25,534 nt of DNA, taken from a virus. Taxonomy: Duplodnaviria > Caudoviricetes. The notes under the pieces are model-generated. The model saw only the letters and a program-made list of their open reading frames with translations. It was not told the DNA's origin and searched no databases. The DNA lies in the IMG/VR virus record IMGVR_UViG_3300031965_000329, positions 1 through 25,534 of that record; one strand, given 5' to 3'. Position 1 is the stretch's first letter. Every line of letters begins with the position of its first letter. Position numbers and translations under genes: made by a program. This document shows positions 3 through 21,988 of the stretch, one piece after another.

Positions 3-701
3 GAGCCAGTCGCAATTGTGGCATTCGGACCTAGTTTGCGTCATACATGGACGCAGTTGTCCAACTTTAAAATCATTTACACCTGTAGTGGCGCACATAG
101 GTTCCTCGTTGAGAGAGGCATGGTGCCGACTTATCATGTTGACTCCGACCCACGCGCCTACAAGGCTGATATCCTCGGCGAACCACACAGAGACGTAGAA
201 TATCTTATCAGTTCCATTTGTCACCCAACTTATTTCGACAAGCTAGAGCTGCATCGCTCCAAGGTCAAGCTATGGCACATGTTGTTTTTAGAGCCGGAGA
301 TTTTCACCTTCTACCCGAAGATGGAATGGATCATGACGGGCGGACATACGGTTGGACCCCGGACGATCAAACTTGCCCGGATCATGGGACATGCCAACCT
401 GCACATGTTTGGTTTCGACGGATCGGTGGACGGAGAGGGCCGGACCCACGCTACGGAGCATCCGCACCCGCCCCTAGATATGGACTGGATTCAGTATGAG
501 GGCAAACGCTACTACACCAACCGTAACTGGGAAGATCATGCGGCGATTTTGCTCAACGACCTAGACCGCATGCCGGAAGTTAGAACGATGTTTTACGGAG
601 ACGGGCTAATCCAGGAGATGGCCAAGCGACATATCCCCGTGACTAGGGCGCCTCAGCCTATACGTGTCTACAAGGATGAAAAAGGTCAGTGCATGTGGTG
701 A
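3..701 (+). CDS. MptE-like / DUF115 (Maf-type) domain protein, 5' truncated by the window edge
   Basis: The frame is open from nt 3 (EPVAIVAFGPSL). Motifs AIVAxGPSL, CSGAHRFL, YHVDSDPR, GGHTVG and HMFGFD are typical of the family. Confidence 0.65.
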   Translation, partial: EPVAIVAFGPSLRHTWTQLSNFKIIYTCSGAHRFLVERGMVPTYHVDSDPRAYKADILGEPHRDVEYLISSICHPTYFDKLELHRSKVKLWHMLFLEPEIFTFYPKMEWIMTGGHTVGPRTIKLARIMGHANLHMFGFDGSVDGEGRTHATEHPHPPLDMDWIQYEGKRYYTNRNWEDHAAILLNDLDRMPEVRTMFYGDGLIQEMAKRHIPVTRAPQPIRVYKDEKGQCMW

Positions 702-702
702 T

Positions 703-759
703 CCCCTCTTTTCCCTTCCCTGACCCCCAATGTACAGGGGTGGGGTGGTGGGGCGTGGG
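703..759. other. Intergenic C-tract/G-tract element (hairpin or G-quadruplex potential on both strands)
   Basis: Four C-runs at 703-728, then TGTACA at 731-736, then four G3-4 runs at 737-759. Confidence 0.45.
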
Positions 760-790
760 AGGTCCGATCTTTTCTTTCGAGGTTTAGAAG

Positions 791-1567
791 ATGGAAACGA
801 ATATCGCTTTTGGTGCTACGGCGTATGGTCCAATGTGGGCGCCCGCCGTCGCAAGCTGGCTCCGGGTAGTCGGCTACACGGCCAGGCATTTTGCCTGCCA
901 GCAGGTCGGCAAGATTGGTGGTGCAGGCGTCACGGATCGCACGTACACGGCCAATGCGGAGAATCAGCTCGCCGAGGAAATGTTACAGGACGAGTCCTTC
1001 ACCCATCTCTTCATGACGGAGATGGACATGATTCTACCGCATGACACTATCACGAAGCTAGCAGAGCTGGACAAGGACATCGCTGGGGGCGTCTATTTCC
1101 TGCGGGGCGAAGTGCAGCCGGCTCGTGGCCAGCCTTGCCTTTACAAGAAGGCCCCGGCCATCGAGTGGGATAAGCGACGAATCGCGCATGAGAGCGGCAA
1201 ATATCTGCATACACCCGTGAGCCTCTTCCCACGCGATACGGCGTTCCCGGTAGATCATATCGGTCTCGGTTGTGCCTTGATCAAGCGCAAAGTGTTCGAG
1301 ACCCTAGCCAAGCCTTGGTTTGACGTGAAGTCAGCTACCGCCCAGGAATACAGCGGCTACGGCTCCGACATGTACTTCTTCACCAACGTCAAAGAGGCCG
1401 GCTTCGAGGTATGGTGCGACCCAACCGTCATCTGCGGCCAGATCGACTACTACGTCACGGATATAGACGACTACATGTGGCAGCTTGAGAACGATCCTAA
1501 GTTCGCAGGGCGCGGCTATATCGTCGGTGCTGGCGGTCCCAAGCTGGTGGAACATAAGTACGACTGA
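791..1567 (+). CDS. GT-A fold (GT2-like) glycosyltransferase
   Basis: THLFMTEMDMILP (DxD position), GGVYFLR, GLGCALIKRKVFE, GSDMYFF and GFEVWCDPTV; GAGG upstream. Confidence 0.75.
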   Translation: METNIAFGATAYGPMWAPAVASWLRVVGYTARHFACQQVGKIGGAGVTDRTYTANAENQLAEEMLQDESFTHLFMTEMDMILPHDTITKLAELDKDIAGGVYFLRGEVQPARGQPCLYKKAPAIEWDKRRIAHESGKYLHTPVSLFPRDTAFPVDHIGLGCALIKRKVFETLAKPWFDVKSATAQEYSGYGSDMYFFTNVKEAGFEVWCDPTVICGQIDYYVTDIDDYMWQLENDPKFAGRGYIVGAGGPKLVEHKYD

Positions 1568-2292
1568 TGCAAAAGCTCCCTAGCCTCAACATCGGCGCAG
1601 GCCGAACGCCGAAAGGAGCCCTGATCAACTGCGATCTATATGGAGCACCAAACATCGATATCGTCTTTGACGCCTGTAAGCCTTGGCCGTTTCCAGACTC
1701 TAGTATCGGAAGCGTGGAAAGCCACCACTGCTTCGAGCACTTGTCCGACGTGTGGACTTTCATCCGAGAGGCTCATCGCGTTCTTGCTCAGTCTGCACTC
1801 CCAAATCTCACGCTCCGGCTACCCTACGGACCTGGGATTGGCGGCCTCGGCGATATTACACATCTCCGACAGTACTTGCCGTACTCCTTCTGCTGCTTCC
1901 AGCCCGGATATGGAAGCCACACCATGAATCCGCAGCATGACGCATGGGATGCCCCGTTTAGCGTCATGGGTATCTACATGCGCATTAACCCACGCCTGCG
2001 ATGGATGACAAAACCACTCATACGGCGATGGGGCGTGCCAGCGGTGGAATTCCTGTGGGATGGCTTCATCGAGATGATCGTCGGCATGCGGGCGCTCAAG
2101 ACCAAAGCCGAGGTGGACGCCTGGCAAGCCGTCTATAGCGCCGACATGATCCCGATGGCTCCCTGCATGTACGAACATGAGTATAGCGGTAAACCGCTGG
2201 CCCCAGGCGAATCACCACGGCTCAAGTTCTTTGGCGAGTCCGCCAAGGTGCTTCAACAACTATCAGACAAGGAAAAAGGAGTAATGCAATGA
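1567..2292 (+). CDS. Class I SAM-dependent methyltransferase (Methyltransf_11-like)
   Basis: LNIGAG motif I, INCD, WPFPDSS, HCFEHL and REAHRVL; TGATG coupling to the glycosyltransferase. Confidence 0.8.
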   Translation: MQKLPSLNIGAGRTPKGALINCDLYGAPNIDIVFDACKPWPFPDSSIGSVESHHCFEHLSDVWTFIREAHRVLAQSALPNLTLRLPYGPGIGGLGDITHLRQYLPYSFCCFQPGYGSHTMNPQHDAWDAPFSVMGIYMRINPRLRWMTKPLIRRWGVPAVEFLWDGFIEMIVGMRALKTKAEVDAWQAVYSADMIPMAPCMYEHEYSGKPLAPGESPRLKFFGESAKVLQQLSDKEKGVMQ

Positions 2293-2600
2293 TAAACGCG
2301 ACAAGTTCAGATGTTGTCGTCCACGTTCCTGTTACACAGGTCACGATCCGGTGGCAAGGCGCTGAACGAAAGGTGTTCCAGATGGGTCAAGGGTTTGCTC
2401 ATGCTGAGTATAATGACAGTAATGTGCATGCTATCAGTAATCCACTAGAGGATTGGTTACGTACTTCAGCGGGTGGTATCGAGCAGGTGGATCCCATGTC
2501 GAACGTCTATTTCATCTTCGAACAGGAAGGCGAACGAGGTAATCCAGGTCTGGATGACAAGTCTCGGTCTTTGACTGACTTGCAGGTGCCGTTATCATAG
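2289..2600 (+). CDS. Hypothetical protein (103 aa)
   Basis: ATGA overlap with the methyltransferase stop and AGGAG SD; fills the operon gap. Confidence 0.65.
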   Translation: MINATSSDVVVHVPVTQVTIRWQGAERKVFQMGQGFAHAEYNDSNVHAISNPLEDWLRTSAGGIEQVDPMSNVYFIFEQEGERGNPGLDDKSRSLTDLQVPLS

Positions 2601-3550
2601 AGTCTATCACCGACCGTATCGACGCAATCACGCTCATCAAGCCGGAGTATCTACAAGTCGCTCCGCCCGCGCCCAAGTCAGTTAAAATAGAGCTTACGCA
2701 ACGCTGCAATTACCGCTGTGCCTTCTGTGCTTTGCAGTTCCGCGAGACATCGACGACCGACCTCGATTGGGAGCTTTTCAAACGCATAACCAAGGAAATG
2801 CGCGAGGCTGGCGTGGTCGAGATCGCCCCGTTTTATATCGGCGAGAGCTTTGTCGATCCCAAGCGCCTGGTAGCCGCCATCCGGTGGCTTAAAGAAGATC
2901 TTGAAACGCCATACGTGTTCCTGACTACCAACGGGAGTCTCGCCAACCCGGATGTGGTCGAACAGTGCATGAAGGCTGGCTTGAACAGCCTTAAGTTCAG
3001 CGCTACCAGCGCGGACGAAGAAGACTTCAAGAAAGTCGTCCGGGTTTCGCCTCGGCTCTTCCACAAGGCGATAGACAATATCAAGCATGCCCGTGAAATC
3101 CGCGATAAAGGCGGTTACGAAACTCGGCTCTACGCCTCCTCTATCAAGTACGACGGCGAGCAGGCTGCCCGGATGGAGTCCTTCTTGGCTGAGCACATCA
3201 TTCCCTATGTCGATCAGCATTATTGGCTTCCTCTCTATACCTTTGGAGCTATGACAGATCATGTCACAGAGAAGCTGGATTATCAACCCACGCCGGGAAA
3301 TATGGGAAGAATCGGAGCGTTGCGCGATCCTCTGCCCTGTTGGTGTGTGTTTACTGAGGGACATGTATGCGCTGACGGAATGCTCTCAGCTTGCGGATTT
3401 GACGCAACCTCCAAGTACACCGTAGCCGATCTAAACAAAGTCTCGTTCATGGAAGGCTGGCATTCGGCTAGCTTTCAAGAGTTGCGAGGCGCTCACCTCA
3501 GAAAAGACGTGAAAGGAACCGTATGCGAGGACTGCGCTTTATACAAATAG
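2597..3550 (+). CDS. Radical SAM protein with SPASM/twitch domain; probable non-canonical ATA start
   Basis: IELTQRCNYRCAFC (CxxxCxxC) lies upstream of the TTG at 2732 used by the ORF track. Also YIGES, LTTNGS, and C-terminal PCW...DGMLSACGFD...CEDC. There is an in-frame stop at 2576-2578 and no ATG/GTG/TTG/CTG before the motif. Confidence 0.85.
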   Translation: MESITDRIDAITLIKPEYLQVAPPAPKSVKIELTQRCNYRCAFCALQFRETSTTDLDWELFKRITKEMREAGVVEIAPFYIGESFVDPKRLVAAIRWLKEDLETPYVFLTTNGSLANPDVVEQCMKAGLNSLKFSATSADEEDFKKVVRVSPRLFHKAIDNIKHAREIRDKGGYETRLYASSIKYDGEQAARMESFLAEHIIPYVDQHYWLPLYTFGAMTDHVTEKLDYQPTPGNMGRIGALRDPLPCWCVFTEGHVCADGMLSACGFDATSKYTVADLNKVSFMEGWHSASFQELRGAHLRKDVKGTVCEDCALYK

Positions 3551-3922: not shown

Positions 3923-4600
3923 ATGACCCGTGAAGAAATTCAAGCCCGTATCCTCGAAGGTATTGGAGACGATCCCGATACGCCGGTCTTCTTTTCCCAG
4001 ACGCAGCTAAACGCTTTGACAGACGAAGCGCAAGAAGTCTTGACTGAGGACGTGAGGGCTGTGCGACGTACAGCGCTTATACCACTCAAAGAAGGGGTCG
4101 GCTTCATCTATACGCCAGCCGTCGACCCGGACTTCATGGCGCCAATTCGCGTCTGGAACCACCAGAACTCGACGCGGCTAACGTGCCTCTCGATGGCCGA
4201 GTTGGACGTAATCAATATCCGCTGGCAACAGACCACGGGGCAGTCCGAGGTATGGTTCCCCGTGTCCTGGGACCTGTTCGGTCTCTATCCCAAGCCGGCG
4301 GCGGCTAGCGGAGTGCTGCGAGTGGATTATCTCGCGTGGCCTCGTGCGCTAATGGACGCCGACGACCGCTCCGAGCTGCCGGAAGCGACCCACGACGCCT
4401 TGACCCTCTATGGCCAATACATGGGCTGTCTCAAGAAATGGGACTCGGAGGCGGCGATGATCCCTCTCAAAGCTCTTCAACTACACAGAACCGTGGCACA
4501 GGCCCGCTCCGGCATTTCTCGCATCTCGGTTCGCTCATTCCAACGTTCGCATGTGGTGAATAGCGGTTCGTCACCTTCATCTTATCAAACAAGGAGTTAG
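3923..4600 (+). CDS. Putative head-tail adaptor (tail tubular A-like), paralogue 1
   Basis: N-terminal helix pattern MTREEIQARI..FSQTQLNALTDEAQ, GLYPKP, LRVDY, and DDRSELPEATHDAL; position in the late operon. Confidence 0.65.
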   Translation: MTREEIQARILEGIGDDPDTPVFFSQTQLNALTDEAQEVLTEDVRAVRRTALIPLKEGVGFIYTPAVDPDFMAPIRVWNHQNSTRLTCLSMAELDVINIRWQQTTGQSEVWFPVSWDLFGLYPKPAAASGVLRVDYLAWPRALMDADDRSELPEATHDALTLYGQYMGCLKKWDSEAAMIPLKALQLHRTVAQARSGISRISVRSFQRSHVVNSGSSPSSYQTRS

Positions 4601-4601
4601 T

Positions 4602-4937
4602 ATGGCTCAAGATTATCCGACGGAATTAGCTCAAGGGGTTGTGCAAGAACTCAACCCAGTAGGTGCATCTGGACCCTTCAGTAAACTAGATCCGATGCAG
4701 TTGTTACAATATTTACAACAACTGCTAGGTGGCGGTGGTGGTGGGGATCAGCCTCAATGGGCTCCCCGTGGTGGACCTATGGACCCCGGTGGATCGGCTA
4801 TGGGTGGCAGTTTAAAAGACGCGATGCTAATGCCACAACAGCCGCCTTTACCTACGTTTGAGGAAAATCCAGAAGACTTTCAGAGACGTACTGGTCAACG
4901 AATGCGTCCACCTGGACGTGGCGTCTCTATTCCGTGA
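4602..4937 (+). CDS. Low-complexity Gly/Pro/Gln-rich hypothetical protein
   Basis: AAGGAG SD; GTGA coupling to the next gene. Confidence 0.6.
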   Translation: MAQDYPTELAQGVVQELNPVGASGPFSKLDPMQLLQYLQQLLGGGGGGDQPQWAPRGGPMDPGGSAMGGSLKDAMLMPQQPPLPTFEENPEDFQRRTGQRMRPPGRGVSIP

Positions 4938-6244
4938 TCAGTGATATCCTAGACCAAGCCCAAGAATTCCTACACGACGACGGAGCCATTTGGCCCCGCG
5001 CTGAATTACTCAATTGGGCTAACGACGGTTATCGGCAACTGCTTGCGCAGTCGCACGCAGTGGTACGTCCATTCCAACTCGATGTACCGGGTCGAACCGC
5101 ATGGTCCGGCACCCAGGAATGGGAAGATCGTCACGGTCAGGGCACCTGGCGACTAGCCGCCTATCACGTTCGAGCCGCCTCCATTTCAGCGACTTTCCAG
5201 TGGGAAGCCCAGACCCTCGAAGGCATCTCGCCGACCGCCTCGACCGATGCCATCACACACCTGTGGGAGCTATACTTCGCCTCCTCATTTGACCAACACT
5301 GCCGACTTGTGCTATCAAAGCAGCATGAACGACCACTCAAAGTCTACCACGACGACAAGAGGCTCATCGGAGCCTCTACTCGGGAACTCGACACGTTGCA
5401 AACCGAGTGGTGGCAACAGCAGGGCGACCCCATCTTCTGGTTTCCATCGTCGGGGGGTCGAGACGGGAGCTACGAAATCTATGAAATCGCCTCAGCTTAT
5501 GCTCAGTCTTACGACCTGCAAGCCGCCGAATCCGGTATGCCCCGCCTGTTCAGCGGAGATCGTACCTATACCGTGGAGTCTGCGGTTGATCGATGGGACT
5601 ATTCGTATAGTGGGGATGGGGACCTTGCTATGGTTCTTGGTCTGGGCTATCGTTTCACAAGTCGAACTGATGACTCGACCGTCGACGCGACTTTTCCATG
5701 GGAGCTTGCGCAGCTCAACGATGGGACTAGCTCCGACTCCGCAGCGGCGGTACCAGTAGGAACGGCATGGTGGGAAGATGAAGTTGAAACGACGGCGGAA
5801 GAAATCGAGCTTGCGGTTGGACTCGTTCGAGCAATTAGCAGCCCAGATCGACAGTATGCAGCCGCACCTTATGCAACTGCGGAATTCTCAACGCTTGGTA
5901 TTGGGCGTGACTTTAAGTCTAGTACAGACGCCATCACGATTTGGGAGATCATTGTCAGCGCAACGGAGCTTGACGAAGATGATGGACTGAGCCTTATCCC
6001 GGCCCGAATGGCCAAATACCTCAAGTTCTATGTGCTCTCCCGTGCCTTCAGCCGCAAAGGCCAAGGCTTCCGACCTGACATAGCTCAGCATTTCACTACG
6101 CTTTTCCAGATTGGGGTAGCCCTCTTCACGAAGATTGGCAACCTCGGTTTCATTGACCGCACCTACGCCCGCGAAGCGATTACGCCGACGCGGGGTTATC
6201 GTCCGCCACAGGTGCAGCTACCGCCAGAATTCGAGCGTTTCTAA
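4934..6244 (+). CDS. Putative head-tail adaptor paralogue 2 with large insertions
   Basis: DGAIWPRAELLNWANDGYRQL, WWQQQGDPIFW, and IPARMAKYLKFYVLSRAFSR; same scaffold as 3923..4600. Confidence 0.65.
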   Translation: MISDILDQAQEFLHDDGAIWPRAELLNWANDGYRQLLAQSHAVVRPFQLDVPGRTAWSGTQEWEDRHGQGTWRLAAYHVRAASISATFQWEAQTLEGISPTASTDAITHLWELYFASSFDQHCRLVLSKQHERPLKVYHDDKRLIGASTRELDTLQTEWWQQQGDPIFWFPSSGGRDGSYEIYEIASAYAQSYDLQAAESGMPRLFSGDRTYTVESAVDRWDYSYSGDGDLAMVLGLGYRFTSRTDDSTVDATFPWELAQLNDGTSSDSAAAVPVGTAWWEDEVETTAEEIELAVGLVRAISSPDRQYAAAPYATAEFSTLGIGRDFKSSTDAITIWEIIVSATELDEDDGLSLIPARMAKYLKFYVLSRAFSRKGQGFRPDIAQHFTTLFQIGVALFTKIGNLGFIDRTYAREAITPTRGYRPPQVQLPPEFERF

Positions 6245-7020
6245 TGCCCTTCCCTTGGCAAACCACCGGCGCCCTTAGAGGCGGAGTTCCAAACCAAATG
6301 AATGCTTCTACACCACAAAACGCAGAAGGTCTCGGCGTACCTTGGGGCAAGGCTATGTTCAACTTGCCACGCTACCAGATGCCTGGGTCTACTGTAAACT
6401 TCGGTGGCGGATTCGGTCTCTCTGGCGATATGGCTGGTGCGCCCAGTCAGTCTCAGACGGGAATGGCTCCCGGTGCAAACATCGGCAACGTTCGTTTCTC
6501 TCTTAGCAGACAGGCTAGCTCAGACCCCGTTCAGAACATCATTAACGATATTCAGAACCCACTTGGTGGCATGAGTCTGGGTTTTACCGGCGGGGGCGGC
6601 GTGGGTCAGGGACAGGACGCGCCTCAGCCAGGGCTAAGGAACAAAATGTTAGCTGGTTCAGGATACGGTAGCGGTCGAGATTTTCCCTCAGGTTTCCATA
6701 CGAATACAGCCGCACAATCACAATTCGGTCCGTCTGGACCCCCTAGCTATGCGGCTAATCCCATGAACCTACGAAATCAAATACTAGGACAAGGGATTGG
6801 TTCACCTACGGGTATCGGTGGAGCCCCTGAATTAGGTAGTGGTCGAGCCATCGCTGAAGGCATCTCTACTAATACGGCTGCACAATATGGTCAGTTTGGG
6901 CGCCCTAGCCCGGTACCACAGTACTTGGCTCAACAATATGCGGCTAGTCCCATGAGTCTACGAAATCAAATGTTAGGACAAGGGATTGGTTCGCCATTGT
7001 CGAACTTTTACTTCATTTGA
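6244..7020 (+). CDS. Disordered Gly/Pro/Gln-rich protein with internal repeats
   Basis: TAATG coupling; repeated LRN(K/Q)xL, GSGR, TNTAAQ and YAAxPMxLRNQxLGQGIGSP. Confidence 0.65.
   Translation: MPFPWQTTGALRGGVPNQMNASTPQNAEGLGVPWGKAMFNLPRYQMPGSTVNFGGGFGLSGDMAGAPSQSQTGMAPGANIGNVRFSLSRQASSDPVQNIINDIQNPLGGMSLGFTGGGGVGQGQDAPQPGLRNKMLAGSGYGSGRDFPSGFHTNTAAQSQFGPSGPPSYAANPMNLRNQILGQGIGSPTGIGGAPELGSGRAIAEGISTNTAAQYGQFGRPSPVPQYLAQQYAASPMSLRNQMLGQGIGSPLSNFYFI
6748..6992 (+). repeat. 56-nt imperfect direct repeat (6748-6803 and 6937-6992)
   Basis: tatgcggcta(a/g)tcccatga(ac/gt)ctacgaaatcaaat(ac/gt)taggacaagggattggttc. Confidence 0.9.
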
Positions 7021-7032
7021 GCAAGCTCAAAC

Positions 7033-7557
7033 ATGCCTGAACAAGTCAAGGAAATACTCCTACTTCGCGGCGTCAACCTGCGGCAAGAGGCCGCCGACGT
7101 AGAGGAGCCGGAATCTAGGAAGCTAGTCAACCTGGACCCGTTTCAACAACCTGGCGCACTTCGCGTGCGCAGAGGAAAGGAAGTGCTCGGTGGACCCTTA
7201 CAAGACGACCTGGTCAGAGCAATTGCACGCATCAATACCGTCCGTTATCAAGTCGCAGGACGACGACTCTATCGAGAGTTTACTGCAATCACTGGTCCCT
7301 ATTTGGCGGAAAACCAGAAAACCTCCTTCGCCGCCTTCCGGCCCCTTGACGATTCGGTGACGTGGGCGTTCGTGGCCGACGACGACTTTATGCTCAAGTC
7401 GGACGCTACGCGGCTCTACCAGTGGGGTATCGACGTACCGCTTTCGCCGGACCCGAAGGTGGCGAATCAGACTGGCAAGACGCCTGGTGATACGATTGCG
7501 GTAGGGACGTATAAGATCGCCATCACTCAGTTACGTTTTGACCACACCAATGGCTAA
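7033..7557 (+). CDS. N-terminal part of tail nozzle/stabilisation-type protein
   Basis: RGVN..., NLD...GALRVRRG, YQWGIDVP, VGTYKIAIT: the usual opening of podoviral tail tubular B / P22 gp10-like proteins, but it stops after 174 aa. Confidence 0.6.
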   Translation: MPEQVKEILLLRGVNLRQEAADVEEPESRKLVNLDPFQQPGALRVRRGKEVLGGPLQDDLVRAIARINTVRYQVAGRRLYREFTAITGPYLAENQKTSFAAFRPLDDSVTWAFVADDDFMLKSDATRLYQWGIDVPLSPDPKVANQTGKTPGDTIAVGTYKIAITQLRFDHTNG

Positions 7558-8716
7558 TTCCTTAGCCCATGAGGGTAATCCCAAGGAAGACGAGATAATC
7601 ATCACGGCAGGCGACGTGCTTTCCACCGCCCAGCTCGACATAGATTTCCAGTTCTTTGGACCAAACGTCCCAAATGTACCGTTATGGGCCGATGTTCCGT
7701 TTCGTATCTCATCGTCGTGCCCCAATGTCTTCACCTGGCCCGATGGTCGTGAATACATCCCGTTCAACTACAACGTCGTACAGTCTAGCGGCGCCATCAC
7801 GACGTTCACGGATCAGCTCCAAGAACAGCTTCAGAATACGACGTACTGGCTTGACCTGGATATCGAGTCTAAACCAAACTGTTGCGGCGCAGCCTACGTG
7901 CCGTTCCATATGGTCAACATCCCGACCATGAGCTTCACGACCGACCAGGTTTTTCCCGTCCACGACCTTCAGGTCTTTCGAGTCACGTTTCAAAGCGTGA
8001 CGGACACGCCGTACGCCGGCATCTGTGCTTGGGTCGAGGATGGCTCGACCTTCGACGATTTCACGGGCTACGTATTGGCCTGCAACTACGAACTAAGCGA
8101 GACGAAGTTTCTGAAGTACGTACATCAGTCGCTCTGCACCGAAGGCGAAATACTTGGGGTAATCAGCGCCGTACCGTCCGTCGCGAACAGCACGATCGCT
8201 ATCTCGGTCTACACGGACCCGAACGCGGCCTCAGCAGGCGATACGATTTGGCAGCTCGTGGCTGAGGTTAAGGACGAGAATGGTAGCCATCTTGGCAATA
8301 GCCCTATCGACTTGCAGGTTCACGACGACTTGATGGACGTTGTGTATACCGCCACCGGACGTGGAACCGAGTTCGACTCGTTCGATGCCATCCAGCACTA
8401 TACGCAAGTCAATGGTCGATGGGTCAAAGTTACTTCGGCGTTGGGTGGCAAGATCATTAGCGTTGATCCAAGCGATACGAAAGGCACTCCCACCCCTACG
8501 CCGTCCAGCGTGAACGTAGGCGCCCGCCACAACCGAGCCAACGTTGGCTTCGTGGCGCTTGGCAATCATCCTCTAGGTTCCGACACTCAGACGTTCTTCG
8601 GCGGTCAGAATGCCATCTACTTCGGTGGAACAGCCACGTTCGGCGCCTCGACCAACTTCTACGGTCTGCGCGCCGATCTGGATTCATACTCGTTTGGCAC
8701 CGGGACGCTGGCATGA
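7550..8716 (+). CDS. Tail-associated cassette protein A (beta-rich, possibly lectin-like)
   Basis: ATG at 7550 overlaps the upstream stop (ATGGCTAA); begins MANSLAHEGNPKEDEIIITAGDVLSTAQLDIDFQFFGP. Confidence 0.7.
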   Translation: MANSLAHEGNPKEDEIIITAGDVLSTAQLDIDFQFFGPNVPNVPLWADVPFRISSSCPNVFTWPDGREYIPFNYNVVQSSGAITTFTDQLQEQLQNTTYWLDLDIESKPNCCGAAYVPFHMVNIPTMSFTTDQVFPVHDLQVFRVTFQSVTDTPYAGICAWVEDGSTFDDFTGYVLACNYELSETKFLKYVHQSLCTEGEILGVISAVPSVANSTIAISVYTDPNAASAGDTIWQLVAEVKDENGSHLGNSPIDLQVHDDLMDVVYTATGRGTEFDSFDAIQHYTQVNGRWVKVTSALGGKIISVDPSDTKGTPTPTPSSVNVGARHNRANVGFVALGNHPLGSDTQTFFGGQNAIYFGGTATFGASTNFYGLRADLDSYSFGTGTLA

Positions 8717-8840
8717 GCACACTGGCTCATGAGGGTAATCCGACCGAAGACGAAATCATAATTACGGCGGGGGACGTTCTCTCGACGGCCCAGCTCGACA
8801 TAGATTTCCAGTTTTTCGGGCCAACCGCGCCGAACGTACC
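7562..8840 (+). repeat. About 120-nt direct repeat (7562-7680 and 8722-8840, offset 1160 nt)
   Basis: 26-nt identical core gcccagctcgacatagatttccagtt at 7628-7653 and 8788-8813; other differences are mostly synonymous. Confidence 0.95.
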
Positions 8841-9585
8841 CGTGGATAATAATAATCCGGCTAGCTATGCAGGCTGTACCTTCACTGAAGAATCTCGCTA
8901 TGAGGAACTGTGTCCGTTAGGGTTACGTGTAATCGACCGTTATGACCTAGGTTCCTACTCTGGCACGGACAAGCTACATGGGTCATTCGTTGGTTGTGGC
9001 GGCGATCCGGCAGGCGGTTTCGTATTCCAGCCAACAACGCCTTTCTTCTCGGTAGACGTGCTCTCAGGCCGGCGCGACTTTACGACGCAGCCGCAAGGGA
9101 GCTTCGCTGGCTTTAGCTTCGTTCAGGGTGTGGTGAATGCCAGTCATCTAGGCGACTTCCTAAGCGCGGCGGTACAGTATGATATCGTTAGTAGCGAGCC
9201 TGTATCAGGATTCTGTTTCTGGGTAGATGATAAATCGACTCCCTGCAACTTCACCGGCATGGTTGCAATCAACGACGTACAGAACGGCTATAGCTATGTA
9301 GGTTATTTCGTCAATGCCGATTTGCATAGTGACTCGCCAACGATTGTAGCGACTGGAACGATATGTCCCACGAATGAGATTCTCAGCTTCTTTACAGATG
9401 TTAGCGCAGGGACGTTCGAACTAAGTAAGGCCAGCGGTCTACTGCTATCAACTAGCTTAGCTGCCGTCGTACCAAGTGTTATCACCAACGATCCTAATTG
9501 GGGCCTGATTTGGCTTCCTAACAATGGCGGTGGCGTGCATCAATCGAAGTTAGGTTATGGCTTTTTGGCGTGGGATATATCGTGA
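8713..9585 (+). CDS. Tail-associated cassette protein B, paralogue of A
   Basis: ATGA coupling; begins MSTLAHEGNPTEDEIIITAGDVLSTAQLDIDFQFFGP; shares GxCxWVxDxST..FTG with A. Confidence 0.7.
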   Translation: MSTLAHEGNPTEDEIIITAGDVLSTAQLDIDFQFFGPTAPNVPVDNNNPASYAGCTFTEESRYEELCPLGLRVIDRYDLGSYSGTDKLHGSFVGCGGDPAGGFVFQPTTPFFSVDVLSGRRDFTTQPQGSFAGFSFVQGVVNASHLGDFLSAAVQYDIVSSEPVSGFCFWVDDKSTPCNFTGMVAINDVQNGYSYVGYFVNADLHSDSPTIVATGTICPTNEILSFFTDVSAGTFELSKASGLLLSTSLAAVVPSVITNDPNWGLIWLPNNGGGVHQSKLGYGFLAWDIS

Positions 9586-9680
9586 GATGCCCCCGTTGCG
9601 GCCACCGAATCGTAGGACGGAAAACTTGAAAGGGTATAACGTGGACCTGTAAGGTCTGCATTCGACAAGTCGAACGATGA
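9582..9680 (+). pseudogene. Micro zinc-ribbon ORF interrupted by an in-frame TGA
   Basis: VRCPRCGHRIVGRKT*KGITWTCKVCIRQVER*; GTGA overlap at the 5' end and ATGA overlap at the 3' end; internal TGA at 9627-9629. Confidence 0.55.
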
Positions 9681-11113
9681 GACTACTCTGGTACAACCTT
9701 CAAGACCCACTTGATCCTCAGGTAAACGGCTTCGCCTTCTACCGGACGGCGGTGGACGGCGTGATCTCGCTCCTGGTCGAGAAGAAGCATATCGGAGGAC
9801 GTTCCAACGCCTTCCCGTCTGTAGAGTTCGCTATCTGCCATCCGTGGGAAGCCGCCGACTGCGGGAACCAAGAACTGGTTCCGGTCTGGGCCAACCCGAC
9901 GCAATATACGATTGGGACAGATTCCGCGCCCACCGCCGCTACGTCTTCGAACACCTGGGAAGTAGACCCTATCGGCCATGGTAACGCCGAGGATACGTAC
10001 CGGGCTACCCAACCGTGGGAAATCGACTTCCTTGGGATTACCCAGGGTCACATTACATGGGCGTTCGCCTCGACGATGGAGGATAACGCTCTGGGCGCCG
10101 AAGTGGAGTTCGACAACGATCCACCCATTGGCAACCATCTCTGCATCAGTCATCAAGAACAGATGTTCACAGCCGGCGATCCTGAAAATCCTCACTACCT
10201 GTACTACAGCAAACGCTTCCGTCCCGAATCCTTCCCGACCGACAATTTCTTAGAGATTGGAACCGCCAATGATCCCGTCACTAGTCTCGTTTCAATTGCA
10301 GGCTTGCTTGGCCTATTTACGCGGGATACTAAATACCGTATCTCAGGAAACGCAAGTTCAGGCTTTACGAACTATGAAGCTATATCTCGACGTGGAACTA
10401 GAGCGGGTAAGTCAGTCGTGGCCTCGGACCAAGGAATCATCTTCGTCGCTAACGACGGAGTCTATACTACCAACCTGATCGGCCCCGACAAGAAGATCAG
10501 CGGTAAGATCGAGTCGATCTTCACGGGGGATACGGTCTCGGACGAAAGTCCGATCAACCAGGACGCCATGGACCAGGTGGCGGGAACTTATTATAAAAGT
10601 AAGTACTACTTCACCTACCCCACTGGAATCTCGACTATCCCCTCTCGAATGGCAGTTTACTCATTTGACACAGAAGACTGGACTATCTACGAACTCGGTG
10701 GTGGCTCGATGATCTATGAGCCGGACACGGATAATTTGGTCTTGGGCAGCGAGGATTCCTTCGTCTACATACTCGAAAAGGGGATATCCGATAATGGGTC
10801 GGCCATCTCTGTCGAGTTCAGGTCTAAGGATTTGCATGGTAGCTCCTACAATACTAATAACTTGTTCCTTTATCTCAAAGCCGATGTGGAAGTTGCCAAC
10901 GGTGCAACACTCAGGATCGAATTCTACGTCGATGATAAACTTGCTCATACGATTACCATAGCAGGCACAGCAACACGAGTCAATAACCTACACTCGCTCC
11001 CCGAAGGCACGTTCGGTAAGCGGTGGCGAGTTCACATGAGCTTTTCCGACGACAAGGGCACCACGGTGCTATACGGAGTAGCTGCGGTTTTCTTACCGTT
11101 AGCTAGCTCTTAG
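9677..11113 (+). CDS. C-terminal part of tail nozzle/stabilisation-type protein (beta-propeller-like)
   Basis: DPQVNGFAFYRT, DNDPP, LYYSKRFRPESFP, ISRRGT, FVANDGVY, and C-terminal FRSKD...GKRWRV. Confidence 0.7.
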   Translation: MRLLWYNLQDPLDPQVNGFAFYRTAVDGVISLLVEKKHIGGRSNAFPSVEFAICHPWEAADCGNQELVPVWANPTQYTIGTDSAPTAATSSNTWEVDPIGHGNAEDTYRATQPWEIDFLGITQGHITWAFASTMEDNALGAEVEFDNDPPIGNHLCISHQEQMFTAGDPENPHYLYYSKRFRPESFPTDNFLEIGTANDPVTSLVSIAGLLGLFTRDTKYRISGNASSGFTNYEAISRRGTRAGKSVVASDQGIIFVANDGVYTTNLIGPDKKISGKIESIFTGDTVSDESPINQDAMDQVAGTYYKSKYYFTYPTGISTIPSRMAVYSFDTEDWTIYELGGGSMIYEPDTDNLVLGSEDSFVYILEKGISDNGSAISVEFRSKDLHGSSYNTNNLFLYLKADVEVANGATLRIEFYVDDKLAHTITIAGTATRVNNLHSLPEGTFGKRWRVHMSFSDDKGTTVLYGVAAVFLPLASS

Positions 11114-11130
11114 GAGTTATAGGTCTCTAA

Positions 11131-12531
11131 ATGGCAAACCAAGGCGTCGGGCCATGGCATATCACCGAGGCCGAACCGTACACGATCAACGACGTGTTCC
11201 GCCAGATCGAGGAGCAGGTCAACCTACTTCGCGGTCTGGGTGCCTCGGTCTCGATCTCCATTGCGCTCCATACTCATGCCGGAGCAAGCTCCGGCGGCGT
11301 GCTCGACCATGGCGCCCTGGGCGGTCTAGCCGATAACGACCATCCACAATATCTTCTAGCCACAGCCGTCACGACCGACGAGGCCGTAGAAGAGGCAACC
11401 GGCCACGACCGCGTTTCCGATCAGGTCATGGTCGGAGACAATTTGACCCTGACCGAGCAAGCGGATGGTTCCGGCGACGCCGTCTTGTTGGACGTGAATA
11501 CGGCCACGGTTATCACCACGGCTAACACAGATTGGGTGGACCTAACCGACAGTGGGGCTACTACGCTCCATAGTCACGGCGGCGCTACCGCCGAGACGGA
11601 TCAAGCTCTCTATGACGCTCAGACTGCGGAGCACATAACCGACGAAGTCTTCGTAGACGACACCCTGATCTTGACCGAGCTGGCGGACGGCTCCGGCGAT
11701 GCAATCCAGCTTGCCGTACAGCCTAATCTTCTGCTCGATGATGCTCAAGCTGTATCAGGCCGTGTCAGCGATCAAGTGATGGTTGGCACCGGATTAACCC
11801 TGACGGAACTAGCCGAGGACTCCGGCGACGCTATCCAGCTTGCCGTTGATTCAACCGTCATCACTACGACGAACGCCGACTGGGTAGACTTAACGGATAG
11901 CGGGGCCACCACCCTACATTCCCATGCAGGCGGCAGCGAAGCATTCGACGTGGGGCTAGCGGAAGTCAACGACTATGGTACGGACGACTGGGAGCGGGTA
12001 TCCGGTGGTCTAGCAGACTTCGGCCTCGCTATCGACTCGACGAGTCGTCCGCACATCCAAGGGCAAAACCGCTTTCGTTATCTCAATTCGATGGTCCATG
12101 CGGAAAAGTCCACCACACAAACCATCAACAACAATACATGGACAGTGGTAACCTTTGACGTTGAAGAGTTCGATACGGACGGCTTGCACGACACTGTTAC
12201 TAATAATAGCCGTTTGACAGCACAGATTACCGGCAAATACATAGTAGCTTGCTGTTTGTCCTTCGCCTCTAATGCTACAGGTATAAGAAAACTAACAATT
12301 GAAAAAGGTAGCGCGGGGGTACAAACAAGTCTAAATATTGTAGGTATGAGTGGTACCTTCGCGACCACACCAGGTTCTGCATTTATGACCGTTGGTGCCG
12401 TGACGGAGCTGGCTGCCGGAGAGTATGTAGAGCTTTTTGGGTTTCAAAACTCCGGTGCCGGTCTTGGTATTGAAGGGGTAGGTACCTGGGGTCACGTAAC
12501 GTTTCTAGCCTTGATATACGTAGGGGAATAA
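11131..12531 (+). CDS. Tail fibre with internal repeats and C1q/TNF-like C-terminal domain
   Basis: DHGALGGLADNDHPQY, HxH motifs, and TWTVVTFDVEEFD...SRLTAQITGKY...LAAGEYVELF. Confidence 0.75.
   Translation: MANQGVGPWHITEAEPYTINDVFRQIEEQVNLLRGLGASVSISIALHTHAGASSGGVLDHGALGGLADNDHPQYLLATAVTTDEAVEEATGHDRVSDQVMVGDNLTLTEQADGSGDAVLLDVNTATVITTANTDWVDLTDSGATTLHSHGGATAETDQALYDAQTAEHITDEVFVDDTLILTELADGSGDAIQLAVQPNLLLDDAQAVSGRVSDQVMVGTGLTLTELAEDSGDAIQLAVDSTVITTTNADWVDLTDSGATTLHSHAGGSEAFDVGLAEVNDYGTDDWERVSGGLADFGLAIDSTSRPHIQGQNRFRYLNSMVHAEKSTTQTINNNTWTVVTFDVEEFDTDGLHDTVTNNSRLTAQITGKYIVACCLSFASNATGIRKLTIEKGSAGVQTSLNIVGMSGTFATTPGSAFMTVGAVTELAAGEYVELFGFQNSGAGLGIEGVGTWGHVTFLALIYVGE
11410..11934 (+). repeat. 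Protein-level tandem repeats in the tail fibre
   Basis: RVSDQVMVG.LTLTE.A.SGDA.L.V...VITT.N.DWVDLTDSGATTLHSH occurs at about 11410-11583 and 11761-11934, with a half copy between them. Confidence 0.85.
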
Positions 12532-19844: not shown

Positions 19845-19960
19845 TTCACCCTCCAAAGACACCAGCCACATCCCATTCCTATGCACTTAAACGCATAGCC
19901 TGGACCAAACTTGATCCGCCATAGCGTACAGCGAAAGCAGCGTGGGCATGTCTTTTTCAC
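19841..19960 (-). CDS. 39-aa Cys-rich zinc-ribbon peptide
   Basis: MKKTCPRCFRCTLWRIKFGPGYAFKCIGMGCGWCLWRVK; GTG start overlaps the upstream TGA. Confidence 0.6.
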   Translation of the reverse strand: MKKTCPRCFRCTLWRIKFGPGYAFKCIGMGCGWCLWRVK

Positions 19961-20100
19961 CTCGACCACGACCACGATCCCGACCACGATCCCGACCCCG
20001 ACCACGACCGCGACCCCGACCCCGACCACGACCCCGACCGCGACTGCGACCGCGACCGCGATCCCGACCACGACCAATAGATTAGCCAGACTGGTATCAT
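19957..20100 (-). CDS. (Ser-X)n repeat peptide 2 (47 aa), not in the ORF track
   Basis: MIPVWLIYWSWSGSRSRSQSRSGSWSGSGSRSWSGSGSWSGSWSWSR; ATGA overlap with the Sm-like stop and GTGA overlap downstream. Confidence 0.75.
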   Translation of the reverse strand: MIPVWLIYWSWSGSRSRSQSRSGSWSGSGSRSWSGSGSWSGSWSWSR

Positions 20101-20486
20101 TTCAATATACCGAACGACTCAATAGAAGCCCTTGTTACATACCATTGATTCGGAAGCGGTTGTGCATCTTGCCAAGTTTTCGTTGTTAGTGGTCCTGTTT
20201 CAAATACGATTTGAGGCTTATCTAGCAAAACACAATCGGTATTTACGCCAATCAGTTTGCCTGTGTAAATATAACGCATACAATACAGCGTTATCGTTTG
20301 ATCAAGCAAGGCTTCTAGACCTTCACCTTCAACTTCTGTCACCGTTACTACCTTTTTCATTACGACCTCCGTTTGTTATGCACGTTTATATTCACCCGAC
20401 CCCGACCTCGACCACGACCGCGACCCCGACCGCGACCACGACTCCGACCGCGACCGCGACTGCGACTGCGACCACGATCCCGACCA
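19960..20486 (-). repeat. Two degenerate hexamer arrays, consensus NGGTCG (about 19960-20076 and 20395-20486)
   Basis: 19 and 15 TCG-containing units; the first 30 nt of the two ORFs are 29/30 identical. Confidence 0.95.
20097..20360 (-). CDS. Putative Sm/LSm/Hfq-fold protein
   Basis: GGAGG SD; LEALLDQTITLYC.RYIYTGKLIGVNTDCVLLDK resembles Sm1, and WYVTRASIESF resembles Sm2. Confidence 0.6.
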   Translation of the reverse strand: MKKVVTVTEVEGEGLEALLDQTITLYCMRYIYTGKLIGVNTDCVLLDKPQIVFETGPLTTKTWQDAQPLPNQWYVTRASIESFGILK

Positions 20487-20513
20487 ATAGATTCGCCAGA
20501 CTGGTATCATCAT
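20376..20513 (-). CDS. (Ser-X)n repeat peptide 1 (44-45 aa), not in the ORF track
   Basis: (M)MIPVWRIYWSGSWSQSQSRSRSESWSRSGSRSWSRSGSGEYKRA; GAGG SD and ATGA overlap with the phosphoesterase stop. Confidence 0.75.
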   Translation of the reverse strand: MMIPVWRIYWSGSWSQSQSRSRSESWSRSGSRSWSRSGSGEYKRA

Positions 20514-21988
20514 CCAAACCTCTTCTTCAAGAACTTCATCGACACGAACATAGGATCGAAATTGCCGTTCCGGACCTCGTGCAGCATGACGATGCCACGC
20601 CAGTGCTGATTTCCCAAAGGAGTTAGGTATTTTTCCTTGTGTTGGTAGAACGAATTGTGATGTGGATAGCCTTCGATGATATAGGTGCCAGTGCTGATTC
20701 GTGATCGCACGATATCACGATCACCTAGAAAGTCGATAGATATTACAGTATCGTTCATGTGGTTTGGGCTAGAGATAGAAGCTAATAATTCAGGCCGAAA
20801 TTTAGCTAGTAATCGTTCGGGACGTATCTCGCCTAGTACCTTAGCAATATGCGTAGTACCGCCTTGAATTCTTAGTTGCTTCACGTCACGATGAGTATCC
20901 CAATTTTTACTTGTACGACCACAAAGATTCTCGATTGTAGATTGAATTCGATCTAAAGTTGGCCCTTTCTTTTGATAAATACTAAGCTGCATACATGTTC
21001 CACCCGTAGTTTCTCTGGTATAAAGCGACCCTTCGCCATCATACATACCGGCTAACCAACCTGCTTCATAAGAACGAAGTGGTTCCCAATAATCCAGGAA
21101 ACGTGGAATAGTTGCCCCTATCCAAAGCTCGGCAGTGGTACGCCATTTATAACCTGTTCCGATTTTCACCAACCATTGATGATCTAGCGTAACCTTAAAT
21201 TCTTTACCCGATTGAAGTTTGACGGAGTACACACCCGCCGTATCTAAATCGACCGCCTCGACAATGCCGGTGCGAAAACGCCGCTTTCTCGGTAATGCTT
21301 CTTCGTCAAAGCTAACTACTTTATCGCCGACTTGAAGATTGCCAAGTGGTATGTAATGCAGATCGGCGGTTAAGACTTTATGGTCTGGCGTGAGACACCC
21401 CGCGATGATCGCCGTGATCCGTCCACCGTCCGCCTTGTCGGCGTAGGCAACGTCGAGTCCTTGCTGGTGGCCGGCGACGCAGGAGGTGTGATACGTTGAT
21501 ATAATCTTTCGAGCCGTCGTACATGGTCGTCCCATGACGCCACTAGGGAAGTAGTGAGCGAAGTGGACGCCACCGACTTTGATCGGCTTGAGATACGGGA
21601 CGACTTGCCAGCCCGCCTCTTCGTACTGCAAGTCTTGGAGTCCGATGGTGCCATCAAGCTTAGCATCCGATTCAACAGCTCTAAGGATTCTCTCCTCATG
21701 GTTGCCAAGAGTGAGAATCCGTCTAGGCTTATAGCGTTGCTTTTTGCGAATAGGGTTAAGAAGTAAATCCATGCCTCGGTGAGCTGCGTCAACATCTTTG
21801 CGATATCGTCGTCCTTCATAGGATTTTTTCCCCTTGTCATAGTCTGCAAGGCTTGGCATATCGACGAAATCACCGCCTTGCACGATCACGTCCGGTTCTT
21901 TCTCGGCCAGGTACTTGCCGCACCATGTCAGGTGGTCTAGGGAGATACCATCCTTGACCTGGGTGTCTGGAATATACGCTATCTTCAT
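20510..21988 (-). CDS. Calcineurin-like metallophosphoesterase, intein-containing (about 244 aa after splicing)
   Basis: IPDTQ, GGDFVD, LGNHE, FAHY and AGHQQ motifs. Confidence 0.9.
   Translation of the reverse strand: MKIAYIPDTQVKDGISLDHLTWCGKYLAEKEPDVIVQGGDFVDMPSLADYDKGKKSYEGRRYRKDVDAAHRGMDLLLNPIRKKQRYKPRRILTLGNHEERILRAVESDAKLDGTIGLQDLQYEEAGWQVVPYLKPIKVGGVHFAHYFPSGVMGRPCTTARKIISTYHTSCVAGHQQGLDVAYADKADGGRITAIIAGCLTPDHKVLTADLHYIPLGNLQVGDKVVSFDEEALPRKRRFRTGIVEAVDLDTAGVYSVKLQSGKEFKVTLDHQWLVKIGTGYKWRTTAELWIGATIPRFLDYWEPLRSYEAGWLAGMYDGEGSLYTRETTGGTCMQLSIYQKKGPTLDRIQSTIENLCGRTSKNWDTHRDVKQLRIQGGTTHIAKVLGEIRPERLLAKFRPELLASISSPNHMNDTVISIDFLGDRDIVRSRISTGTYIIEGYPHHNSFYQHKEKYLTPLGNQHWRGIVMLHEVRNGNFDPMFVSMKFLKKRFG
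20654..21397 (-). mobile_element. Intein (248 aa) with a LAGLIDADG motif
   Basis: N-terminal G|CLTPDHKVL, block B VTLDHQW, WLAGMYDGEGS, and C-terminal YIIEGYPHHN|S. Confidence 0.92.

Follow-up and report, generated by a model that had tools for sequence, protein, structure and literature searches.

Organization of the locus

The window analyzed here is a stretch of 25,534 nucleotides (nt), positions 1 to 25,534 of the IMG/VR virus record IMGVR_UViG_3300031965_000329 (Duplodnaviria; Caudoviricetes), and its element of interest is a predicted tail nozzle gene present in two separate parts, N (N-terminal) and C (C-terminal), with two cassette genes (A and B) and a small zinc-ribbon-like open reading frame (ORF) between them (Table 1). 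The coordinates and peptides given for N, A, B and C in a preliminary description of this DNA were all present in the sequence, with the product of N (174 amino acids, aa) ending in ...VGTYKIAITQLRFDHTNG. The two cassettes open with a common leader, encoded by a direct repeat of 116 nt (81% identity, spacing 1160 nt). Over 33 codons, leaders A and B differ by 16 synonymous and one non-synonymous change, and no perfect run exceeds 26 nt. Since the differences fall almost only at synonymous sites, the protein appears to be under constraint or selection. The shared leader had been recognized correctly in the preliminary description, in which the two ORFs diverge behind it. The bodies are not unrelated: A and B can be aligned over 243 aa at 33% identity with the leader included, the bodies alone still share about 26% identity, and on this sequence comparison they are distant paralogues.

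Stop/start overlaps are common among the genes here, and the zinc-ribbon ORF, which the preliminary description did not mention, bridges B and C by overlapping the stop of the one and the start of the other. No Shine-Dalgarno (SD) sequence is visible before the ATG of cassette A at 7550, as had been noted earlier; this is not a special sign, since none is apparent by eye before 7033, 8713 or 9677 either. The genes belong to a short-tail module in which an SU10-type adaptor gene lies upstream of the nozzle, and the order is the same in relatives.

Table 1 Coordinates of the features discussed (window positions unless a locus is named)
Feature	Position	Strand	Description
Nozzle N-part, 174 aa	7033..7557	+	start of platform/propeller and first strands of the inserted beta-sandwich (putatively immunoglobulin-like)
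Cassette A, 388 aa, ATG at 7550	7550..8716	+	leader, Pro-rich linker, predicted concanavalin A (ConA)/lectin-like beta-sandwich body
Leader A (LAHEGNP...FG)	7562..7660	+	segment missing from N and C, plus cassette-specific extension
Cassette B, 290 aa	8713..9585	+	same leader; distant paralogous body with predicted ConA-like fold
Leader B	8722..8820	+	second copy of the leader
Zinc-ribbon-like ORF, 32 codons, GTG start	9582..9680	+	CxxC-16-CxxC; in-frame TGA at 9627-9629, likely read through
Nozzle C-part, 478 aa	9677..11113	+	remainder of the inserted domain, larger part of the propeller, and platform
Tail adaptor	3923..4600	+	PF24175 SU10_adaptor, E 1.8e-16
Zinc-ribbon copies	window 9582-9680; L002 99-221; L004 1370-1495; L022 819-944; L020 ~7874-8044; L008 7735-8004		overlap the start of C

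A tail nozzle divided into N and C

A homologue search with C gave, among the best 120 of 123 proteins, 74 full-length forms, 42 stand-alone proteins sharing the start of C, and 4 others. In these matches a HEGNP-type segment lies between the N- and C-matching parts of all 74 full-length homologues, as the earlier proposal of a nozzle split in three, with its middle segment carried by the cassette leaders, had implied. Stand-alone homologues of N were found as well, 53 of 54 without the leader motif, and most of them end 3-15 residues past the last strand. Against a hidden Markov model (HMM) of the unsplit family, N matched positions 9-169 (E 2e-43) and C positions 195-575 (E 1e-140), so that the two parts tile the model and leave a gap where the leader maps; the leader profile aligned with residues 171-184 of the unsplit nozzle (hhalign, E 3.3e-5, probability 72). 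This comparison of N, leader and C with unsplit homologues, which had been suggested beforehand, places the three pieces in the order proposed. In addition, C matches phrog_511 (E 1e-13), and when an HMM of the unsplit segment was compared with leader-motif proteins, 55 of 55 had their best match within the N-terminal 30 aa.

The model of an unsplit homologue (P0070; predicted local distance difference test score, pLDDT, 92.8) was most similar to the Pa223 tail nozzle (Z 31.6, root-mean-square deviation, rmsd, 2.7, 439 residues aligned; Foldseek E 4e-18), followed by the nozzles of GP4 (Z 29.2), SU10 (28.8), P22 (26.7) and T7 (21.4), with VP1 and crAss001 also among the matches. Its top 24 structural matches were all phage tail nozzles, at a sequence identity of only 9-14% to the known ones. 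The unsplit homologue is therefore predicted to be a podophage tail nozzle with a platform beta-sandwich and a beta-propeller (fold class of T7 gp12, P22 gp10 and SU10 gp17). The two cuts correspond to residues ~170 and ~192 of this model, between propeller-like repeats, where strands 161-169, 172-176 and 186-198 surround them. In the SU10 nozzle, immunoglobulin (Ig)-like domains are inserted between blades 2 and 3 (PMC9509320); by this likeness, and by the strand pattern in the secondary structure (DSSP) strings, we infer that both cuts fall in an inserted Ig-like domain here too.

A quick tree was built from 94 rows, with 25 others omitted and with midpoint rooting, hence an arbitrary root. 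In it the 42 split forms and P0045 lie together beyond a branch with full support (SH-aLRT, a Shimodaira-Hasegawa-like approximate likelihood ratio test, 100), as opposed to 49 unsplit forms; by this phylogeny one branch of the family has inherited the split. Some of the split forms (P0040, P0042, P0045, P0046, P0047) make up a sub-branch with a longer first loop.

The breaks recur at the same places in many independent assemblies from several sources (stand-alone C, n = 42; stand-alone N, n = 53). Contigs without differences span the A/B junction (run X1, possibly the source sample of the window) and the B/zinc-ribbon/C junction (run X3, another study), where a 151-nt identical contig covers 9550-9700. 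The N/A junction was not among the contigs listed from three runs in the exact letters of the window, only as variants, and the N of the window ends in NG while a record 99% identical to it (P0182) ends in QD. These two discrepancies are what could be said for an origin of the breaks in assembly or sequencing errors, or in the decay of a dead prophage gene; this explanation, of which the preliminary description had named assembly errors as something that would overturn its reading, is refuted by the recurrence across assemblies, and the split-nozzle architecture is a real, clade-wide one.

The leader as the missing segment

In the unsplit model, the segment is predicted to contribute strands 172-176 and ~186-191 to the inserted beta-sandwich. 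The half of this domain that remains on C (residues 1-33) is the best-conserved stretch of C (0.77, compared with 0.57-0.71 elsewhere), R168 of N is invariant (alignment A7), and E8 of the leader is invariant in the 26 cassettes of a whole-protein search, which argues that the strands flanking the cuts are under selection. In the model of cassette A alone (AlphaFold2), the leader has a pLDDT below 50, so it is predicted to be disordered on its own.

Two natural fusions were found, one with a cassette-type leader joined in frame to N (P0226) and one with a strand and the segment joined to C (P0045), the latter cut one strand earlier than the other split forms; the segment can evidently ride on either neighbor. 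The leader profile matched 43 proteins, 40 of them N-terminally, and three long repeat proteins (P0158, P0170, P0176) were dropped. In P0158 the profile matched bacterial Ig repeats, which hints weakly at an Ig-type hairpin as the nature of the motif.

Gene order in relatives

Besides the window, 22 loci were compared, of which 11 were split and informative, 7 unsplit and 4 uninformative because they begin inside C. All 11 split loci that reach upstream of C contain a cassette or part of one, while none of the 7 unsplit loci has a cassette-type leader; L014 and L018 carry variants of the motif that the motif pattern missed. The number of cassettes in relatives, which had been listed as something to establish, is one to two per locus: two with a payload in the window, L003 and L005/L006, and one in L004, L020 and L008. 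L010 and L013 each have a payload cassette and also, immediately ahead of C, a payload-free leader gene of ~60 aa (L010 5481-5681; L013 6934-7110). A frame break inside an A-type cassette of L023 (~300-340) is either an error or a pseudogene.

At eight junctions between N and the cassette, the offsets were -8, -4, -1, -1, +3, +3, +9 and +160 nt, with phases 0, 1 and 2 in three, two and three cases, stops of the TAA, TAG or TGA type, and a separate start codon for every cassette. Having all three phases and all three stops, these junctions fit no single recoding event.

The order itself can also be permuted. In L030 (minus strand, 672-1; 88% identical to L020) the cassette follows directly behind the gene that normally precedes N, and in L022 (2-274) the C-terminus of a cassette immediately precedes N. 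Between its N and C, L022 has no cassette, only a four-codon remnant ORF at the usual place. The two contigs have 10 nt in common at their ends, and each of them matches P0166. When the cassette lies upstream of N, no colinear chain of N, leader and C can be translated, yet the cassette has been kept, and the leader would have to act in trans.

No relative was found by scanning viral contigs with C, with N and with the split alignment, or by a genome scan; a DNA pattern of the C start gave 10 loci, none of them related; and a DNA pattern of the leader gave 12, with L030 a true cassette and the other 11 chance matches.

Cassette bodies and their exchange

By combining the leader-profile and protein searches, at least 51 separate cassettes of 200-500 aa were collected, which form 25 clusters at 40% identity and 5 clusters at any detectable similarity; a conserved leader is carried by variable bodies. 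The two cassettes of the window had no Pfam match. In the model of cassette A (pLDDT 64.6 overall), the body matched the thrombospondin C-terminal domain (Z 12.7, rmsd 2.8, 171 residues aligned), CBM66 (Z 12.6), and peanut lectin and the TM4 phage receptor-binding domain (both Z 11.5), and is predicted to be a ConA-type beta-sandwich. The body of cassette B is probably ConA-like too, judging from a low-confidence Atlas model (pLDDT 0.48) with a template modeling (TM) score of 0.62 to PF06439-type sandwiches. From the predicted fold, the bodies may bind glycans or receptors on the host surface.

Comparison of close relatives shows that cassettes have been swapped: L004 and L020 share 91% identity over N and C without any BLASTN match across the bodies, and when the window is aligned with L003 and L005, homology is lost where leader B ends (8819-8840) and is regained at C. 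Recombination between the repeats was an alternative raised earlier; at the leader, recombination appears to have operated over evolutionary time, but there was no sign of a programmed deletion of 1160 nt.

Several C-parts and unsplit nozzles carry extra in-frame domains at a second site (P0016, P0018, P0020, P0022, P0028; L004 1446-3242; L014 1105-4131; L018 9-2156), which indicates that the nozzle family also varies its tip by ordinary insertion.

Proposed assembly and alternative explanations

These observations can be joined in a model in which a podophage nozzle gene was split into N and C, and the ~20-residue segment that joined them came to open separate cassette proteins. N and C would pair through their shared propeller and platform. 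The leader would occupy the place left empty in the inserted domain, where its invariant Glu would still touch the invariant terminal Arg of N, and would tether the lectin-like body through a proline-rich linker. We regard this arrangement as quite probable, and assembly of the three chains by strand complementation as likely. Cassettes A and B and, in two relatives, the payload-free leader would then compete for six positions on a hexameric nozzle, so that either the single virions or the population would be mixed, and each subunit would display one exchangeable, putatively sugar-binding domain directed at host surface glycans. The overlapping stops and starts could couple the translation of four or five ORFs, and new cassettes probably arrive by recombination with the leader-coding DNA as the crossover point. 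A wider proposal is more tentative and, in our judgement, falls a little short of an even chance: the nozzle tip may have become a socket and the excised strand pair a portable tag by which any carrier protein can be loaded onto the virion, so that two payloads, or a payload and a blank plug, share six sockets and produce virions of mixed specificity and tunable avidity, while a zinc ribbon made only by UGA readthrough may set the amount of the C half or of the cassette.

Several points weigh against the three-chain assembly. The match between the leader and the unsplit segment covers a short stretch (14 aligned columns, at the probability of 72), and a second conserved stretch of the leader (G-x-V-L-S-T-A-x-L-x-I-x-F) has no clear counterpart in unsplit nozzles; it might duplicate the first strand of C, and the geometry may accordingly differ from simple gap filling. 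The strand pairings and the Arg-Glu contact were derived from DSSP strings, and the 100% conservation of the Glu in a profile of 54 leaders is circular because its rows were chosen by that very motif. Both fusions are single records, and P0226 may have been cut by the end of its 1414-nt contig; similarly, L030 and L022 stand as separate contigs that overlap by 10 nt, and not as one record. Lectin-like folds do not reveal a function, and the model of cassette B is poor. One long-branch unsplit row (P0124) was placed outside the unsplit group in the midpoint-rooted quick tree, and no cultured relative was found by tblastn among the 50,697 phage records of INPHARED.

The cassettes might instead be virion receptor-binding proteins whose nozzle-derived leader now serves as an ordinary anchor or oligomerization tag, on the nozzle surface, the adaptor or other cassettes, with N and C assembling without it. 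The leader extension that is conserved and yet absent from unsplit nozzles would suit such a role, and phages usually build such proteins from a conserved N-terminal anchor and a variable receptor-binding domain (bioRxiv 10.64898/2026.05.12.724579). We nevertheless consider it unlikely, giving it some limited weight, as the leader matches exactly the stretch missing from N and C, the flanking strands on both are strongly conserved, payload-free leaders have been kept in two divergent phages, and the natural fusions join the leader to N or C at its ancestral place. A programmed DNA rearrangement, in which the leader repeats recombine and an arrangement with A and B alternates with one of B only as a host-range switch, seems improbable. 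It would account for the 116-nt direct repeat and its spacing, for a cassette number of one to two, and for the way homology with L003 and L005 breaks at the end of leader B and returns at C; the repeats, however, reach no more than 77-81% identity, their perfect runs measure 14-26 nt and their differences are almost exclusively synonymous, no 1160-nt joint was listed in the three runs (although contigs drop rare variants), and no recombinase was noticed among the ORFs scanned. Since it also leaves unexplained how the segment reaches the nozzle, a rearrangement could at most add to the strand-complementation model.

A single chain of N and cassette A, or of N, leader and C, produced by ribosomal frameshifting, readthrough or RNA splicing appears very improbable. 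Programmed frameshift fusions of the lambda G-T type have a conserved phase and a slippery site at the junction. The 8-nt overlap and the missing SD at 7550 invite such a reading, as do cassettes in frame behind the N stop in L004, L020 and L008, the N-leader fusion P0226, and the apparent recoding of one TGA elsewhere in these phages. A conserved junction phase as in a frameshift fusion was nonetheless not found (all three phases, n = 8, each cassette with its own start codon behind a TAA, TAG or TGA stop), the cassette precedes N in the permuted order of L022/L030, and there was no Rfam match at E<=1 in 6900-11200. The +1 frameshift from the 7033 ORF into cassette A, an option in the preliminary description, is contradicted by the phases and by the permuted gene order.

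Comparison with known systems

The closest precedent is the Pseudomonas podophage A1002, in which the nozzle is encoded in two genes (gp42, nozzle-base, and gp39, nozzle-rope) and completed by strand complementation (PMC13730344), so that the principle is already in print. In both cases an ancestral nozzle has been divided among genes; in A1002, and putatively here, its parts are rebuilt by beta-strand complementation and the split serves to attach receptor-binding parts. The A1002 split, however, is two-way, lies in the platform and propeller blades 1-2 and leaves the tip domain intact, and the fibers dock as separate dimers on the rope (same source), whereas the present locus has two cuts inside the inserted domain and carries the excised segment covalently on a putative receptor-binding protein, in several exchangeable versions that include payload-free ones. 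Of the A1002-type features, a nozzle in more than one gene was found here, and the A1002 cut site with a rope-like fiber dock was not; this locus is not a member of the A1002 type and would only work like one. A1002 was the only split nozzle among the papers listed in the literature searches, and a three-way split nozzle with exchangeable leader cassettes was not found there (main texts, with subscription papers largely outside).

The single-chain nozzles (Pa223, GP4, SU10 gp17, VP1, P22 gp10, T7 gp12 and the crAss001 muzzle) share the platform, beta-propeller and inserted domain with the unsplit homologue and differ in being one polypeptide, at the low identity given above. Donor-strand complementation is known from chaperone-usher pilins, where an N-terminal extension completes the Ig-like fold of another protein. 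Here the leader would likewise complete an Ig-like fold and attach a lectin-like domain to a tip, but there is no chaperone or usher, the acceptor would consist of two chains, and the cassette has no evident acceptor groove and would therefore form no polymer, unlike pilins; the likeness is an analogy without a claim of homology. Modular tail fibers and spikes also combine a constant N-terminal piece with swappable C-terminal receptor-binding domains and have sharp swap boundaries (bioRxiv 10.64898/2026.05.12.724579). In contrast to these, the anchor at this locus is an excised internal piece of the nozzle (~30 aa), and the bodies are predicted single ConA-like sandwiches with no evidence of trimeric fiber folds.

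If the model holds, phages have a novel means of varying their receptor-binding domains, a natural plug and socket formed by a split domain at the tail tip that is used across at least 25 payload clusters and allows host-binding domains to be changed without changing the tail core. It would extend the split nozzle of A1002 to a three-chain system with multiple clients, for which virions with mixed tips are predicted, and would provide a natural tag of ~30 residues with an acceptor pair, approachable with purified proteins.

A zinc-ribbon ORF with an in-frame TGA

The zinc-ribbon-like ORF was present in six loci (window, L002, L004, L022, L020 and L008), in all of which a TGA occupies the same place between the two pairs of Cys residues, although L020 has a degenerate first pair. 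No such ORF was present in L003, L005/L006, L023, L010 and L013, a DNA pattern scan for the zinc ribbon with its TGA gave 0 matches, and the Pfam zinc-ribbon matches of ORF 9582-9680 were generic and all below the cut-off. In the four alignable copies, 4, 5 and 12 of 14 columns vary at codon positions 1, 2 and 3 before the TGA, and 5, 4 and 8 of 10 after it, and this third-position variation beyond the TGA suggests that the downstream part is coding. From this pattern, programmed UGA readthrough of the ORF is likely, with a chaperone function or translational control of C as candidate roles. Mu Com is a zinc-ribbon translational activator, and a similar role could be compared on account of the CxxC...CxxC pattern and the overlap with the start of the next gene in six loci, the Pfam matches being sub-threshold only.

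A general reassignment of TGA was ruled out, given that TGA is a normal stop here (ending 9 of the 22 listed window genes) and that cassette A is closed at an unchanged position by TGA, TAG or TAA in relatives. No tRNA was found in the window or in the 14 loci, out of 23, that were scanned, and hence no suppressor tRNA was seen. A hairpin resembling a selenocysteine insertion sequence is possible by eye in the window and not shared by the other five loci. No conserved hairpin at the start of C was significant (z -1.6 to +1.9), which leaves an RNA switch at that position unsupported. No account of UGA readthrough in a phage zinc ribbon was found among the papers listed in the literature searches, with subscription papers largely outside; the conserved in-frame UGA is a separate recoding candidate in a phage where TGA otherwise serves as a stop.

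Small ORFs with similar N-termini lie behind the cassette in L010 (5140-5505), L013 (6587-6970) and L008 (7735-7947), without a Pfam match above the cut-off, and the one in L008 runs into the TGA zinc ribbon. They are possibly assembly chaperones.

Other observations in the window

Upstream of the nozzle, a second adaptor-like gene (4934-6244, +) matches phrog_399 with its first 40 residues, as the adaptor at 3923-4600 does, and is twice as long. Just upstream of the tail genes, a block at 3-3550 (+) contains MptE-like, methyltransferase and radical SAM/SPASM genes and one gene that is glycosyltransferase-like by eye; a similar block occurs in relatives and possibly serves virion modification. 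At 20510-21988 (-), an intein that has a LAGLIDADG-like domain interrupts a metallophosphoesterase gene (weak Pfam matches). Two related arrays of short degenerate repeats, at 19945-20112 and 20385-20522, would translate as Arg-Pro or Val-Ala repeats, depending on the strand.

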